A stretch of 14,225 bases of DNA from a virus (IMGVR_UViG_2778261499_000009:1-14225); one strand, 5' to 3'. Positions 3,405 to 14,225 are shown, numbered from the stretch's first letter. The notes: generated by a model not told the origin, from the letters alone. Translations and numbers: made by a program.

Positions 3405-3812
3405 TCACTCTCCTTTGATGCGAATGCCTGCGGCGCGGATTGCAGCGATGACTTCAGAAACTTTGTATGCCATTACCGTTTGGTAATCATCGTGAAAATC
3501 TGTTCGATGAAGCATGCTGCTACGTTCCGGGAGCGATATTTCCCGCGCTTCCAGTTCTGCAATGCGCTTTTTTGCTGCTTCCAGTTCATCCAGTAATTCC
3601 AGCACGGTAGCCGGATTAGCCTTGGCAACAAAATCCCGGACTGGCTTACAATCAATCTCCGCAATGGGTTGATACGATGTGTAGCCATGCTGTCTTGTAT
3701 AACTACCGTGACGAATAACAAAAAAATCACCATTTATTTTTTTAGCCTGCCACTTATCTTCACCGGCTTTCTCTGCCGCTTCACGCAGTGCCTGATAGTC
3801 AATCTTGTTCAT
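3405..3812 (-). CDS. Ead/Ea22-like protein
   Basis: 135 aa; N-terminus MNKIDYQALREAAEKAG and PATVLELLDELEAAKKRIAELEAR resemble recalled Ead/Ea22-like lambdoid early-region proteins. Confidence 0.5.
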   Translation of the reverse strand: MNKIDYQALREAAEKAGEDKWQAKKINGDFFVIRHGSYTRQHGYTSYQPIAEIDCKPVRDFVAKANPATVLELLDELEAAKKRIAELEAREISLPERSSMLHRTDFHDDYQTVMAYKVSEVIAAIRAAGIRIKGE

Positions 3813-8968: not shown

Positions 8969-9002
8969 CACCGCCAGAGATAATTTATCACCGCAGATGG
9001 TT
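8942..9002. promoter_or_regulatory. oL1-oL2-oL3 cI operator sites
   Basis: TATCACCGCTAGTGGTA (8942-8958), CAACACCGCCAGAGATA (8966-8982), TATCACCGCAGATGGTT (8986-9002); match recalled lambda oL sites, with one difference in oL1. Confidence 0.85.
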
Positions 9003-9157
9003 ATCTGTATGTTTTTTATATAGATTTATTTTTTGCAGGGTTGTGTGGCTTGGGAGGTGATCGAGAGATCAGAATTGCGTTGTTTAGTGAGTTGCACCTA
9101 TTAATTTTAAAATAAATACAATTGGTTATGTGTTTTTAGGTGGGGCGATCGTGAGGC

Positions 9158-9183
9158 AAAGAAAACCCGGCTCGGTGGCCGGG
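9158..9183 (-). terminator. intrinsic terminator ending the cI-region leftward transcript (timm-like)
   Basis: Minus-strand reading: stem CCCGGC / loop CACCGA / stem GCCGGG followed by TTTTCTTT, starting 10 nt after the stop of the 9193..10050 gene. Confidence 0.6.
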
Positions 9184-9192
9184 TTGATGGGA

Positions 9193-10050
9193 TTATCGTT
9201 TATTTCTTTGATGTTTCTTTGCAGACTCAGCTTGAGTGTTTCCATACCTGCGTTTACCGCTATTGTTTTTTCCCCTAGGCTTGCCTTTTTTTCGATCTTC
9301 CCACCAGTCAGGTGCCGGGTCTGGCTCAACATGTAAAGCATCGGCAAGTCCTGATATCAAGCTGTATGACTGAACTCCATCAATGTGCTCTGACAGTGAT
9401 GGGGTAACATTCTGTCTTAGTGGATCAAGAATAAAATCAATACCTTTAATTCTGGCGTGTTTGGCGGCAGGCACAAAGTCTGAGTCCCCAGCAACAAGGA
9501 CAATTACATCAACAAGTTTTTCATAAGCTAAAGTCGTGATATCCATCCCTAGCTTGATATCAACTTGTTTTTGTTTGATGTCATAGTAAAAATCATCATT
9601 TGTCAGTTCATCCCATTTTTTCGTTCCTTTCATCAGAGCATCAAGGGAGAATGTAGTTAGTTGCCATCGCTTATTATCAACAAGATTCCCTAATCTTAAG
9701 GCTGTTTTTCGAGTTTTTCTTAACTCTTCATGCAGCTCCGTTCTCAGAATATATGATTTTTCGAGTTTGAAATTCTTGCGACCAGGCGTCTTATTGCCAG
9801 GCTCAGGAAGTGGAAGGCGTGTTTGAATGTCGAGTGGTGGACAGTCATAGAAGTAAATTCTATAAAGCTCAAGCGGTTCCCTACGTTCTTGTGATTGACG
9901 TTTTCCATTAAGATGGGAAAGAACCATTGACCATATTACTTTCATTATGCATTGCGCAGTCAGTTCATGCTCGGCGAAGTGTTTACGATGCGTAGCATGA
10001 ACACGCTGCATGAAAAAACCCGCATCAATTAAAATTGCTGCTTTCTTCAT
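9193..10050 (-). CDS. NYN/LabA-like (PIN-fold) nuclease-domain protein with Lys/Arg-rich C-terminal tail, in the rexAB position
   Basis: 285 aa; N-terminal MKKAAILIDAGFF and downstream VDVIVLVAGDSDFVPAAKHARIKGIDFI match recalled NYN/LabA hallmark motifs; tail RKKGKPRGKNNSGKRRYGNTQAESAKKHQRNKR is highly basic. Lies between cI and the timm-like terminator, where lambda carries rexA-rexB. No resemblance to RexA or RexB. Confidence 0.65.
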   Translation of the reverse strand: MKKAAILIDAGFFMQRVHATHRKHFAEHELTAQCIMKVIWSMVLSHLNGKRQSQERREPLELYRIYFYDCPPLDIQTRLPLPEPGNKTPGRKNFKLEKSYILRTELHEELRKTRKTALRLGNLVDNKRWQLTTFSLDALMKGTKKWDELTNDDFYYDIKQKQVDIKLGMDITTLAYEKLVDVIVLVAGDSDFVPAAKHARIKGIDFILDPLRQNVTPSLSEHIDGVQSYSLISGLADALHVEPDPAPDWWEDRKKGKPRGKNNSGKRRYGNTQAESAKKHQRNKR

Positions 10051-10060
10051 AAGAGTCCCA

Positions 10061-10120
10061 AAAAAATAGCCCAGAGCCGTTATGCAGATATTAACAATTG
10101 TCTGCGAACGGGGCTGGGCT
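10061..10120 (-). terminator. large imperfect hairpin followed by a U-run, immediately upstream of the NYN gene start (terminator/attenuator-like)
   Basis: Outer stem AGCCCAGAGCCGTT (10068-10081) pairs with AACGGGGCTGGGCT (10107-10120) at 12 of 14 positions; inner stem GCAGA/TCTGC; on the minus strand it is followed by ATTTTTTT and then the ATG 13 nt later. Confidence 0.4.
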
Positions 10121-10130
10121 TGGTTTAATT

Positions 10131-10159
10131 AATCTATGCCAAGTTGACTGTGCCGTCAA
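10131..10159 (-). promoter_or_regulatory. candidate sigma70 promoter reading toward the NYN gene, embedded in a GTTGAC-N6-GTCAAC palindrome
   Basis: Minus strand TTGACG, 17-nt spacer, TAGATT; perfect inverted repeat GTTGAC TGTGCC GTCAAC at 10143-10160. Confidence 0.35.
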
Positions 10160-10177
10160 CATAAAACTTACTTCCTA

Positions 10178-10894
<717 letters not shown>

Positions 10895-10901
10895 TTAAAT
10901 C

Positions 10902-10967
10902 TATCACCGCAAGGGATAAATATCTAACACCGTGCGTGTTGACTATTTTACCTCTGGCGGTGATAAT
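10902..10967. promoter_or_regulatory. oR3-oR2-oR1 with pRM and pR
   Basis: TATCACCGCAAGGGATA (10902-10918), TAACACCGTGCGTGTTG (10925-10941), TACCTCTGGCGGTGATA (10949-10965); pR -35 TTGACT (10939-10944) and -10 GATAAT (10962-10967); SD TAAGGAGG before cro. Confidence 0.9.
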
Positions 10968-10982
10968 AGTTGCATGTACTAA

Positions 10983-11192
<210 letters not shown>

Positions 11193-11199
11193 ATAACCC

Positions 11200-11231
11200 C
11201 GCTCTTACACATTCCAGCCCTGAAAAAGGGC
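11200..11231 (+). promoter_or_regulatory. nutR (boxA CGCTCTTAC, boxB GCCCTGAAAAAGGGC)
   Basis: boxA at 11200-11208; boxB perfect hairpin at 11217-11231; matches recalled lambda nutR. Confidence 0.8.
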
Positions 11232-11255
11232 ATCAAATTAAACCACACCTATGGT

Positions 11256-11290
11256 GTATGCATTTATTTGCATACATTCAATCAATTGTT
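11256..11290 (+). terminator. tR1-like terminator region between cro and cII
   Basis: Hairpin GTATGCA / loop TTTATT / TGCATAC (11256-11275) followed by an AT-rich tract; position equivalent to lambda tR1 (Rho-dependent in lambda). Confidence 0.5.
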
Positions 11291-11300
11291 ATCTAAGGAA

Positions 11301-11333
11301 ATACTTACATATGGTTCGTGCAAACAAACGCAA
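11301..11333 (-). promoter_or_regulatory. pRE with cII-binding TTGC-N6-TTGC repeat
   Basis: Minus strand TTGCGTTTGTTTGC (plus 11320-11333) overlapping the cII start; -10-like AAGTAT (plus 11301-11306). Confidence 0.6.
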
Positions 11334-11607
11334 CGAGGCTCTACGAATCGAGAGTGCGTTGCTTAACAAAATCGCAATGCTTGGAACTGAGAAGACAGCG
11401 GAAGCTGTGGGAGTTGATAAGTCGCAGATCAGCAGGTGGAAGAGGGACTGGATTCCAAAGTTCTCAATGCTGCTTGCTGTTCTTGAGTGGGGTGTCGTCG
11501 ACGACGACATGGCTCGATTGGCACGACAAGTTGCTTCGATTCTCACCAATAAAAAACGCCCGGTGTGCAAGACCGAGCGTTCTGATCAAATACAAATGGA
11601 ATTTTAA
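11311..11607 (+). CDS. cII: cII transcriptional activator (lambda type)
   Basis: From the ATG at 11311 (SD TAAGGAA upstream): MVRANKRNEALRIESALLNKIAMLGTEKTAEAVGVDKSQISRWKRDWIPKFSMLLAVLEWGVVDDDMARLARQV... matches recalled lambda cII; the C-terminal few residues differ. The track ORF begins 60 nt upstream. Confidence 0.95.
   Translation: MVRANKRNEALRIESALLNKIAMLGTEKTAEAVGVDKSQISRWKRDWIPKFSMLLAVLEWGVVDDDMARLARQVASILTNKKRPVCKTERSDQIQMEF
11548..11579 (-). terminator. oop-like antisense terminator overlapping the cII 3' end
   Basis: Minus-strand reading: stem CGCTCGG / 9-nt loop / CCGGGCG (one mismatch) followed by TTTTTTATT; position as for lambda oop RNA. Partner promoter not identified. Confidence 0.35.
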
Positions 11608-11629
11608 CAACATCCAACGAGGTAATTAT

Positions 11630-11902
11630 ATGCGAAACAAAGGCTTTAATCCACCTGATACACACAAAGAAGCTAAGCGTTTGCGCTTCCTTCGTTCCAT
11701 TGATGAAAGAACTCAAATCTCTTTTGTGAAAGTTGCCAGAACTGAGCTTCTGAAGGCTGAGGCGAGGGCGTTGCTCCCGTCTCTACCAAAAGAGGAGGGA
11801 TATACGTTCATTCCAAACGCATTTCTGGAAAAGCTTCTCAAAGAAGACATATCCGTAAGTCAGTTTAACGATGTTCTTAAGGTCTTTCGTCAAGGCAGGT
11901 AG
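11630..11902 (+). CDS. hypothetical protein inserted between cII and the replication initiator
   Basis: 90 aa from the ATG at 11630 with GAGG 9 nt upstream (MRNKGFNPPDTHKEAKRLRFL...); the longer track ORF (11318) overlaps cII out of frame and is not credible; the stop is followed 2 nt later by the next start. Confidence 0.55.
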   Translation: MRNKGFNPPDTHKEAKRLRFLRSIDERTQISFVKVARTELLKAEARALLPSLPKEEGYTFIPNAFLEKLLKEDISVSQFNDVLKVFRQGR

Positions 11903-11904
11903 TT

Positions 11905-12852
11905 ATGAGCAATACAGCAAAAATCTACGATTTCAGCGCCGCACACGAGCGCAGGAGCAACAGGATGGAGAACCAGAAAACTGGTTACATTCCGTTGTAC
12001 CGGAGCATTCTGAAACAGTCATGGGCGAAAGATGTTTATCTTCGCACCCTGTGGGAAAACCTTCTCCTGAATGCCGCCAGAAAGCCATACAAAGCGAATT
12101 TCAAAGGTCATGAATGGCATCTGCAACCCGGTCAACTGGTTGTGACAGCAGCTGATTTAGGTCTTCAGTTATGCGACAGACATGGCAAGCCAGCAAGCCG
12201 TGATCAGGTTGAGCGGATGCTTCAGGTTTTTGTGAAAGAGGGGATGATCTCCATTGATGGAGAGAAGCAAAAAGGTCGTGTGATAACCATCACAAATTAC
12301 CATGAATATGCTCAAAAAATGGACAATTTACCCGCACATGAAGCCGCACAAACAACCGCACATGATGCAGCACATGACGAAGACAGTAATGGCGCGGCTT
12401 TCAGAGCACATGCCGCACATGAAAGCGCACATGAAGCCGCACAAACAACCGCACATCATGAACAAGAAGGTATTAACAAGAATATAAATAATACCCCCCT
12501 ACCCCCCAATGGGGGAGGCGATGGGCAGGTTAAACCTGAACGTCGCAAGGCAGAACGAATCGACTACGAATCCTTCCTGAACGCCTACAACACCGAAGTC
12601 GGTGACAGACTTCCACACGCTGTTGCGGTCAACGAGAAACGAAAACGCCGCCTGAAGAAAATCATCCCGCAACTGAAAACGCCAAACGTGGACGGTTTCA
12701 GAGCGTATGTCAGGGCGTTTGTGCATCAGGCCAAGCCGTTTTACTTCGGAGACAACGACACGGGCTGGACAGCTGATTTTGATTACCTGCTGAGGGAAGA
12801 TTCGTTAACTGGAGTACGGGAAGGGAAGTTTGCAGACAGGGGGATTGCATGA
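11905..12852 (+). CDS. phage replication initiator (O-like / P22 gene 18-like) containing the origin
   Basis: 315 aa; N-terminus [10 protein letters not shown] resembles lambda O MTNTAKILNF; position immediately before the helicase; a central low-complexity AHE/AHD-repeat linker is encoded by the iteron DNA; stop overlaps the helicase start (ATGA). Confidence 0.7.
12330..12520. repeat. ori-type iteron cluster + AT-rich tract + C5/G5 palindrome inside the initiator gene
   Basis: GCACATG-containing units recur at least six times; an exact 30-bp direct repeat CGCACATGAAGCCGCACAAACAACCGCACAT occurs at 12333-12362 and 12427-12456; followed by AT-rich GGTATTAACAAGAATATAAATAATAC and CCCCCCTACCCCCCAATGGGGGAGG. 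Confidence 0.65.
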
Positions 12853-14225
12853 GACAGGATATCGAAGCGAGCGTTATCGGTGGCCTGCTGATTGGTGGAT
12901 TAACACCAACCGCCAGCGACGTTCTGGCAACGCTGGAGCCGGAAGCGTTTTCAATTCCGCTCTACCGGAAAGCCTTCGAGGTTATCCGCAAGCAGGCGAG
13001 AAACAGAAACCTAATCGATGCGCTGATGGTTGCCGAGGCGTGCGGAGAGGAGCATTTCACGTCAATCCTGATGACCAGCAAAAACTGCCCGAGTGCCGCA
13101 AACCTGAAGGGATATGCCGGAATGGTCGCGGATAACTATCACCGCCGTCTGGTGCTGGAAATCATGGATGAAATGCGTGAACCAATTCAGAGCGGAACCA
13201 TCGACGCATCGAGTCAGGCGATGGATGAGCTTGTAAAGCGTCTTTCAGCCATCAGAAAGCCCCGTGACGAGGTTAAACCGGTACGGTTAGGGGAAATCAT
13301 CACCGACTACACTGACACGCTTGACAGGCGTCTGAGGAACGGAGAAGAGTCAGATACCCTGAAGACCGGAATCGAAGAACTTGATGCCATCACCGGAGGG
13401 ATGAACGCGGAAGACCTGGTGATAATCGCTGCTCGTCCTGGTATGGGGAAAACCGAACTGGCGCTGAAGATTGCCGAAGGCGTTGCAAGCCGCGTTATTC
13501 CTGGTTCTGACGTCCGGCGCGGAGTGTTGATTTTCTCGATGGAAATGAGCGCATTGCAGATCGCAGAGCGAAGCATTGCCAACGCCGGGAGGATGTCGGT
13601 TAGCGTACTGCGAAATCCTGCATCGATGGATGACGAGGGCTGGGCACGTGTTGCTAACGGAATGAGTCAGCTTGCAGATTTGGATGTATGGGTGGTCGAT
13701 GCCTCGCGGTTATCGGTCGAAGAAATACGCTCAATCGCAGAACGGCACAAACAGGAAAATCCAAACCTGTCACTCATCATGGCGGATTATCTTGGCCTGA
13801 TTGAGAAGCCGAAAGCAGACCGCAACGACCTCGCAATTGCTCACATCTCAGGAAGCCTTAAGGCGATGGCGAAAGACCTGAAAACTCCAGTTATCTCCCT
13901 GAGTCAGCTTTCACGCGATGTTGAGAAGCGACCAAACAAACGCCCGACAAACGCAGATTTGCGTGATTCAGGAAGCATTGAACAGGACGCAGACTCAATC
14001 ATCATGCTCTATCGGGAAGCGGTATATGACGAGAACAGTAGCGCCGCGCCATTTGCTGAAATCATCGTGACGAAAAACCGTTTTGGCTCACTTGGTACGG
14101 TTTACCAGCGGTTCTGTAACGGACACTTTGTTGCATGTGACCAGGATGAAGCCAGACAGATTTGCACAGCATCAAATGCACCCGCTGCACGTGGCAGACG
14201 ATATGCACAAGGGGCTGACGTATGA
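12849..14225 (+). CDS. DnaB-family replicative helicase (P22 gene 12-like)
   Basis: 458 aa; Walker [17 protein letters not shown]; DnaB-like C-terminal RecA-fold motifs ([19 protein letters not shown]); SD AGGGGG 5 nt upstream; stop codon is the last 3 nt of the window. Confidence 0.9.

Follow-up and report, generated by a model that had tools for sequence, protein, structure and literature searches.

That an origin of replication can lie inside the gene for its own initiator, with the binding sites dictating the sequence of the linker peptide, is textbook knowledge for λ. The annotated iterons of λ (39034 to 39118) are four sites of ~18 bp with internal dyad symmetry, spaced 20 to 24 bp apart, and are followed by an AT/purine-rich tract and then by an EcoRI-containing palindrome. 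The iterons of P22 (TTTACC-N5-GGTAAA) and HK97 (TTAGCT-N5-AGCTAA) are also dyad symmetric and have a spacing of ~24 bp. Plasmid iterons are 17 to 22 bp long, usually lie outside the rep gene, and have DnaA boxes nearby. Iteron plasmid origins of the Rep, pi, and TrfA class combine same-orientation repeats with winged-helix initiators and an adjoining AT-rich unwinding element (see also PMC4081077). The principle of an intragenic origin has been noted for P22 and for phage L (PMC8022706), and in gene 18 of phage L, which has six imprecise 11-bp repeats, a putative origin has been annotated (Zaworski et al. 2020, PMC8022706; GenBank MW013503, rep_origin 31650 to 31726).

We propose that positions 12332 to 12518 of the window, meaning the whole 14,225-nt stretch analyzed here, are very probably the vegetative (theta) origin of a lambdoid, P22-like (Lederbergvirus-type) prophage and that this origin lies inside its own initiator gene. 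The window covers the early region of the prophage. Its gene order is cII (11251 to 11607), a 90-amino-acid (aa) open reading frame (ORF), an O-like replication initiator gene of 315 codons (11905 to 12852, + strand), and a gene for a DnaB-family replicative helicase of the P22 gene 12 type (12849 to 14225, + strand). The start of the helicase gene overlaps the initiator stop codon, and the gene continues past the end of the window. The preliminary description had taken the gene that contains the repeats to be a replication initiator, and database searches bear this out: the protein matches Pfam Phage_rep_O (PF04492) over aa 20 to 132 with 56.9 bits (E value, 3.2e-15; cut-off, 28.7 bits) and belongs to PHROG 345 (“replication initiation O-like”), and a DnaB-type helicase gene comes next. 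The helicase matches DnaB_C (261.5 bits), the DnaB N-terminal domain (49.6 bits), and PHROG 19, and its CUS-3 counterpart is annotated as a replicative DNA helicase.

The initiator consists of an N-terminal, winged-helix-type Phage_rep_O domain (aa 20 to 132), a linker encoded by the repeats (aa 143 to 190), and a C-terminal domain of the P22 gp18/HK97 O type (aa 190 to 315), which presumably recruits the DnaB-family helicase as its partner. The N-domain is a divergent member of Phage_rep_O; the corresponding scores of λ, P22, and HK97 are 114 to 129 bits. The whole gene is 98.5% identical at the nucleotide level to gene O of CUS-3 and ~98% identical to genes of HF4s, JEP4, Gally, and a series of Stx2a-converting phage records, and the N-domain of the Kapi1 protein is 98.6% identical to that of the window. 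A PDB sequence search with the initiator gave no match at an E value of ≤1. A single-sequence AlphaFold2 model of aa 1 to 144 was of low confidence (pLDDT, 59), and its Foldseek matches in the PDB were all weak (E value, >0.003; TM, ≤0.41). The top matches were mostly winged-helix DNA binders (CRP, CodY, MarR, the DnaD N-domain, and plasmid initiators), which is compatible with a winged-helix N-domain and is not evidence for one.

Two other features of the region deserve mention. The 90-aa ORF between cII and the initiator gene (11630 to 11902, + strand) corresponds to phrog_2519, a family of unknown function. It weakly resembles the first third of Phage_rep_O (E value, 0.048, below the cut-off), is 29% identical to aa 26 to 59 of λ O, and may be a relic of a displaced initiator N terminus. 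Farther upstream, a 20-nt inverted repeat (10314 to 10333 and 10436 to 10455; 80% complementary, with the arms 102 nt apart) lies under a 237-aa minus-strand ORF (10178 to 10891).

The proposed origin begins with eight phased 12-bp units that share the core CGCACAW. These units occupy 12332 to 12460 in two clusters of four, all on the + strand, and encode aa 143 to 186. Cluster I (12332 to 12379) has unit starts at 12332, 12344, 12356, and 12368 and reads CCGCACATGAAG, CCGCACAAACAA, CCGCACATGATG, and CAGCACATGACG; cluster II (12413 to 12460) has unit starts at 12413, 12425, 12437, and 12449 and reads CCGCACATGAAA, GCGCACATGAAG, CCGCACAAACAA, and CCGCACATCATG. Between them is a spacer of 33 bp (12380 to 12412) that contains the box AGTAATGGCGCGGCT (12385 to 12399) and an extra GCACATG (12406 to 12412). 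The extra copy is read as AGA GCA CAT in the window and a minority of relatives; most close relatives have AGC GTA CAT (GTACATG) at this place, and the copy is therefore probably not a functional unit. Dyad symmetry is absent from the units, and 12200 to 12600 contains no TGTGC (the complement of the core).

We determined whether such a cluster could have arisen by chance. GCACATG, the motif on which the preliminary description had based its repeat cluster, occurs six times in the 14.2-kb window, and all six copies lie at 12334 to 12433 on the + strand. The shorter word GCACA has 16 copies in the window, 9 of which are at 12334 to 12455 on one strand. The largest same-strand cluster per 130 bp thus has nine copies, against a maximum of four in 2,000 first-order Markov simulations. 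This test supersedes a weaker one, a count of CGCACAW over the whole window (9 found and 4.9 expected). An exact direct repeat is also present, although it is 31 bp long with copies 93 bp apart (CGCACATGAAGCCGCACAAACAACCGCACAT at 12333 and 12426), rather than 30 bp and ~94 bp as first described; in 30 simulations, short-range exact repeats reached at most 13 bp. No other direct-repeat family was found in 9000 to 14225. Scans of the origin for DnaA boxes, IHF sites, and GATC found nothing at the iterons. The region from 12100 to 12700 has no IHF consensus site, and its single DnaA-box-like site (one mismatch; 12231, minus strand) is in the N-domain coding sequence, upstream of the repeats.

Cluster II is followed directly by an AT-rich tract of 33 bp (12461 to 12493; 82% A+T) and then by a C-run/G-run inverted repeat, CCCCCCTACCCCCCAATGGGGGAGG (12494 to 12518), both at the places at which an AT-rich tract and a CCCCCC...GGGGG palindrome had been reported. 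No 30-mer in the initiator and helicase genes is less stable than the AT-rich tract, which ranks third in instability over the window as a whole and is presumed to be the DNA-unwinding element. An AT-rich tract preceded by CATCATGAACAAGAA is found again in most diverged loci. The inverted repeat consists of CCCCC-AAT-GGGGG plus flanking pairs and opens the C-terminal module. The predicted hairpin does not exceed those of shuffled sequences in stability (z, −0.40), and we therefore do not claim a cruciform at 12494 to 12518. HK97, P22, Citrobacter phage Omnitron, and Pasteurella phage Pmp10 also have ACCCCCYTACCCCC, in most cases with a G-run after it, to the right of the AT-rich tract; they keep its position despite having different iterons. 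This recurrence marks the box as the left edge of the P22-type C-terminal module, and the C/G inverted repeat belongs to that exchangeable module and not to the iteron module. In 2 of 80 near-identical IMG/VR loci (L013 and L033), the first C-run (equivalent to 12494 to 12499) has five C residues, compared to six in the window, and the resulting frameshift truncates the initiator to a 675-nt ORF; this could reflect a defective prophage, homopolymer slippage, or a sequencing error.

We then compared this arrangement to the λ and P22 gene 18 origin regions. As in λ, the origin occupies the DNA that encodes the linker of a Phage_rep_O initiator, between its N- and C-terminal domains, and the order of iterons, AT-rich tract, and inverted repeat is common to all. 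In λ ori, the place of the C/G inverted repeat is taken by the right-arm palindrome, although the two sequences are unrelated. The earlier statement that the locus has canonical lambdoid ori architecture is therefore correct for the order of the elements, which matches λ and P22/HK97, but not for the iterons. In place of four dyad-symmetric iterons, the window has eight asymmetric 12-bp units that run in one direction and form two clusters around a conserved spacer. The difference is also apparent when the iteron regions are folded as single-stranded DNA. Those of λ (z, −5.30) and P22 (z, −5.48) fold strongly because each iteron is a palindrome, whereas that of the window folds no better than shuffled sequences (z, −0.51, with DNA parameters). 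The binding mode of the proven λ and P22 iterons, which have dyad symmetry, is therefore not simply transferable to these units. The partner proteins of λ and the window differ as well (a P-type loader and a phage DnaB-type helicase, respectively), and the two N-domains give only a local match, with 32% identity over a 69-residue alignment.

The likeness to P22 gene 18/gene 12 and to HK97 O/P lies in the other half of the locus: the type of the C-terminal domain, the DnaB-type helicase encoded by an overlapping gene downstream, and the ACCCCCYTACCCCC..GGGGG box that follows the AT-rich tract on the right. P22-type iterons are absent from the window, the linker DNA is unrelated, and BLASTP did not detect similarity between the P22 or HK97 N-domains and that of the window. 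The units differ from the P22 and HK97 iterons, as they do from those of λ, in lacking dyad symmetry. With iteron plasmid origins, the window shares same-orientation direct repeats beside an AT-rich element, a resemblance in possible working; the window differs in having 12-bp intragenic units with no DnaA box or IHF site adjoining them.

Among described origins, phage L gene 18 is the nearest parallel. In our reading, the phage L origin consists of 3 + 3 units around a AGTAATGACGCGGCT box, with an AT-rich tract next to them. It thus shares with the window two clusters of short same-orientation units, a central AGTAATGRCGCGGCT box, an AT-rich tract after the clusters, and an O-like gene followed by a DnaB-like helicase gene. 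Both origins are predicted only. The units themselves differ: those of phage L read TGTCCAACGGA with a period of 11 bp, compared to 4 + 4 units of the type CCGCACATGAAG with a period of 12 bp in the window. TGTCCA occurs six times in the phage L linker and not at all in the window, whereas CGCRCAW occurs seven times in the window linker and not at all in phage L. Phage L has another type of C-terminal domain, without the C-run/G-run box, and the whole O proteins are 23% identical (E value, 4e-10). When the loci collected here were searched for the phage L unit, none was found. A more distant case comes from a Gram-positive host. ORF30 of Lactobacillus phage phiAT3, a “DnaD-like helicase loader,” has an N-domain that is 32% identical to that of the window, and TCAATCAA direct repeats and a purine-rich tract (~1230 to 1330) come immediately after this domain, which suggests that ORF30 shares the intragenic-origin layout.

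The box AGTAATGGCGCGGCT between the clusters is not an iteron, yet it is kept across loci that have entirely different iterons, including phage L. Scored against a consensus drawn from the window, phage L matches at 14 of 15 positions (the window, by construction, at 15 of 15). The box was also located at 3690 to 3704 in L129, 890 to 904 in L005, 1948 to 1962 in L119, and 1951 to 1965 in L123. At its synonymous sites, the Ser codon is always AGY and the first Ala codon is almost always GCG, with substitutions retaining G-N-G. The box may represent either a second DNA element or a peptide under constraint.

To follow the iterons across a wider range of phages, we used, out of ~120 loci collected in all, a diverged set of 36 loci from one-genome-per-species contigs, with N-domains 47 to 87% identical to that of the window and with genera that include Klebsiella-like bacteria, Yersinia, Xenorhabdus, Proteus, Sodalis, Pantoea, Brenneria, and others. 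The type of repeat covaries with the type of N-domain. All 30 other loci with an N-domain ≥71% identical to that of the window have 2 to 8 CGCRCAW units in the linker. By contrast, none of the nine loci with an N-domain ≤49% identical has CGCRCAW; they carry other 11- to 12-bp units (CCGATGAACCA, GAGGTAACA, GATACACC, GTCGAAGG, or TGTCCAACGGA) on the same skeleton. The partition of these 39 other loci by N-domain identity is perfect.

The two halves of the initiator have separate affinities. Residues 190 to 315 are 97.6% identical to HK97 O, and residues 190 to 312 are 60.5% identical to P22 gp18; residues 3 to 143 are 74 to 81% identical to O proteins of Klebsiella and Yersinia phages. These Klebsiella and Yersinia relatives have a λ-type C terminus and a P-type partner, yet they keep the CGCRCAT units and the AT-rich tract, whereas HK97 and P22 have the C terminus and helicase of the window type but other N-domains and iterons. 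Klebsiella, Yersinia, and Enterobacter relatives with a P-type partner also have a λ-type palindrome (TCGTC..GAATTC..GACGA), and a near-copy of the λ palindrome (TCGTCCGAGAATTCTGACGA) stands where the window has its C/G repeat. In a sliding-identity comparison, identity to the Klebsiella phage falls and identity to HK97 rises at 12470 to 12500, which places the boundary of modular exchange between the N-domain/iteron module and the C-terminal module at ~12485, inside the AT-rich tract. As in λ, the N-domain travels with its sites and the C-domain with its partner protein, which is the classical lambdoid pattern.

One of the records compared here has a host label that looks wrong. L005 (OR850084.1) was deposited as “Staphylococcus phage SA 1298 Kay” (UNVERIFIED_ORG). 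It encodes an enterobacterial lambdoid initiator that is 62% identical to that of the window, with a P22/HK97-type C terminus and the unit CCGATGAACCA, and its linker-region sequence is identical to that in the record of Salmonella phage S.Inf 5-2 (L131, OR850760.1).

Covariation indicates that sites and N-domain evolve together, but it does not say what their complex does. The units might bind the initiator or another protein in a role other than initiation (autoregulation or titration, inhibition of replication, or a landing pad for a host factor), with the origin elsewhere; indeed, iteron-containing fragments of λ inhibit replication when present in trans (PMC3349717). However, directly after the units comes a tract that is invariant and has the lowest stability in the replication genes, and the whole arrangement is collinear with the λ origin. 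Moreover, we found no other repeat cluster in 9000 to 14225 and no σ70-like promoter in 11800 to 12900 for the sites to regulate. Given the collinearity with λ ori and the lack of another repeat cluster nearby, we consider a non-origin role very unlikely, and we favor the reading of 12332 to 12518 as the origin.

We next asked whether selection in the repeat region acts on DNA or on protein. The units are in the frame of the 315-aa ORF (11905 to 12852) and, as first noted, are translated as a repetitive, AH-rich linker. The repeats could accordingly be a mere coding duplication, or a low-complexity His/Ala-rich linker, with no function as DNA. Among 65 distinct 948-nt genes, obtained from the 80 near-identical loci, polymorphism within the gene is highest in the repeat region (segregating sites: repeat region, 34%; N-domain, 7%; C-domain, 15%), and this holds at the amino acid level, as for an unconstrained linker. 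The polymorphism nevertheless avoids the cores, with a pi of 0.007 at 56 core sites compared to 0.050 at 75 non-core sites, and it avoids the AT-rich tract, in which the 32 positions from 12462 to 12493 have no segregating site.

Codon usage across diverged loci gave the same answer. We counted codons in 31 loci with an AH-type linker (including the window and two phage records), which come from prophages of Enterobacterales such as Escherichia, Klebsiella, Yersinia, Xenorhabdus, Proteus, Sodalis, and Pantoea and contain 157 Ala-His dipeptides. The Ala codons of these dipeptides are GCA in 122 cases, GCG in 35, and GCC or GCT in none, compared to 25% GCA, 19% GCG, 27% GCC, and 29% GCT elsewhere in the same genes. 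The His codon is CAT in 154 cases and CAC in 3 (elsewhere, 57% CAT). Ten different amino acids precede the Ala residue, yet their codons end in C in 154 of 157 cases (elsewhere, 19%). Fixation at synonymous sites means that the selected object is the DNA word C-GCR-CAT with a period of 12 bp, rather than the peptide. The 12-bp phase is fixed across genera, and in the window and most relatives a jump of 45 bp separates the last core of cluster I from the first of cluster II. Constraint on the peptide alone predicts neither the synonymous fixation nor the avoidance of cores nor the fixed spacing, which leaves the coding-duplication explanation highly improbable. Selection at the DNA level thus dominates the protein sequence of the linker, as the preliminary description had supposed, and the AH peptide is dictated by the DNA sites because these lie in the linker between two protein domains. 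Constraint on the mRNA (a structure, a ribosome-pausing signal, or an antisense RNA target) instead of duplex DNA cannot be separated from constraint on DNA by synonymous sites alone, but it is the least credible alternative, since an Rfam scan of the whole window gave no match, the repeat strand folds no better than shuffled sequences, two minus-strand terminator-like matches in a scan of 11800 to 12900 are at chance level, and covariation with a DNA-binding domain has no RNA-based rationale.

Comparison with the described origins suggests how initiator binding, unwinding, helicase loading, and origin firing might proceed at 12332 to 12518. The O-like N-terminal winged-helix domain would bind the eight same-orientation 12-bp units (4 + 4 around the 33-bp spacer), and the resulting nucleoprotein array would destabilize the adjacent 33-bp AT-rich tract. 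The C-terminal domain, of the P22 gp18/HK97 O type, would then load the phage's own DnaB-type helicase onto the opened DNA.

The initiator gene itself is annotated in many records. A literature search found neither a description of this CGCACAW iteron class nor an experimental report on it, and no origin is annotated in the CUS-3 and Kapi1 records. Hence, the iteron class and its bipartite, nonpalindromic layout appear to be undescribed for these phages. A more far-reaching reading, to which we give only a small chance, is that the locus represents a distinct and widespread class of origin in the O family. In such a class, a divergent winged-helix N-domain would read asymmetric 11- to 12-bp units head to tail in two clusters, and the box AGTAATGGCGCGGCT, with the fixed 45-bp jump, would be recognized, as a second element, by the initiator or a host factor. 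Hairpins at λ ori have been proposed as triggers of the Lamassu and OLD defenses (PMC12663957; bioRxiv 10.64898/2026.07.10.737580). If the origin class is indeed distinct, phages that have it, including one Stx2a-converting group, might escape sensing of the Lamassu/OLD type, because asymmetric iterons cannot form such hairpins. The set of loci also amounts to a natural experiment: one shared skeleton carries five or more different unit sequences, each of these is paired with an N-domain variant of its own, and the pairs could help to work out how this branch of the O family reads DNA without palindromic sites.

A 321-bp piece that spans the repeats is present in 282 of 5,426 complete E. coli genomes, almost always on the chromosome, and the replication module is also found in CUS-3, Kapi1, HF4s, JEP4, and 48 Stx2a-converting phage records. 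Our analysis places the likely origin of a replication module that these 282 genomes carry. Phage replication amplifies Stx gene dosage after induction, and the initiator-origin pair is for this reason a plausible handle with which to study or block Stx amplification.
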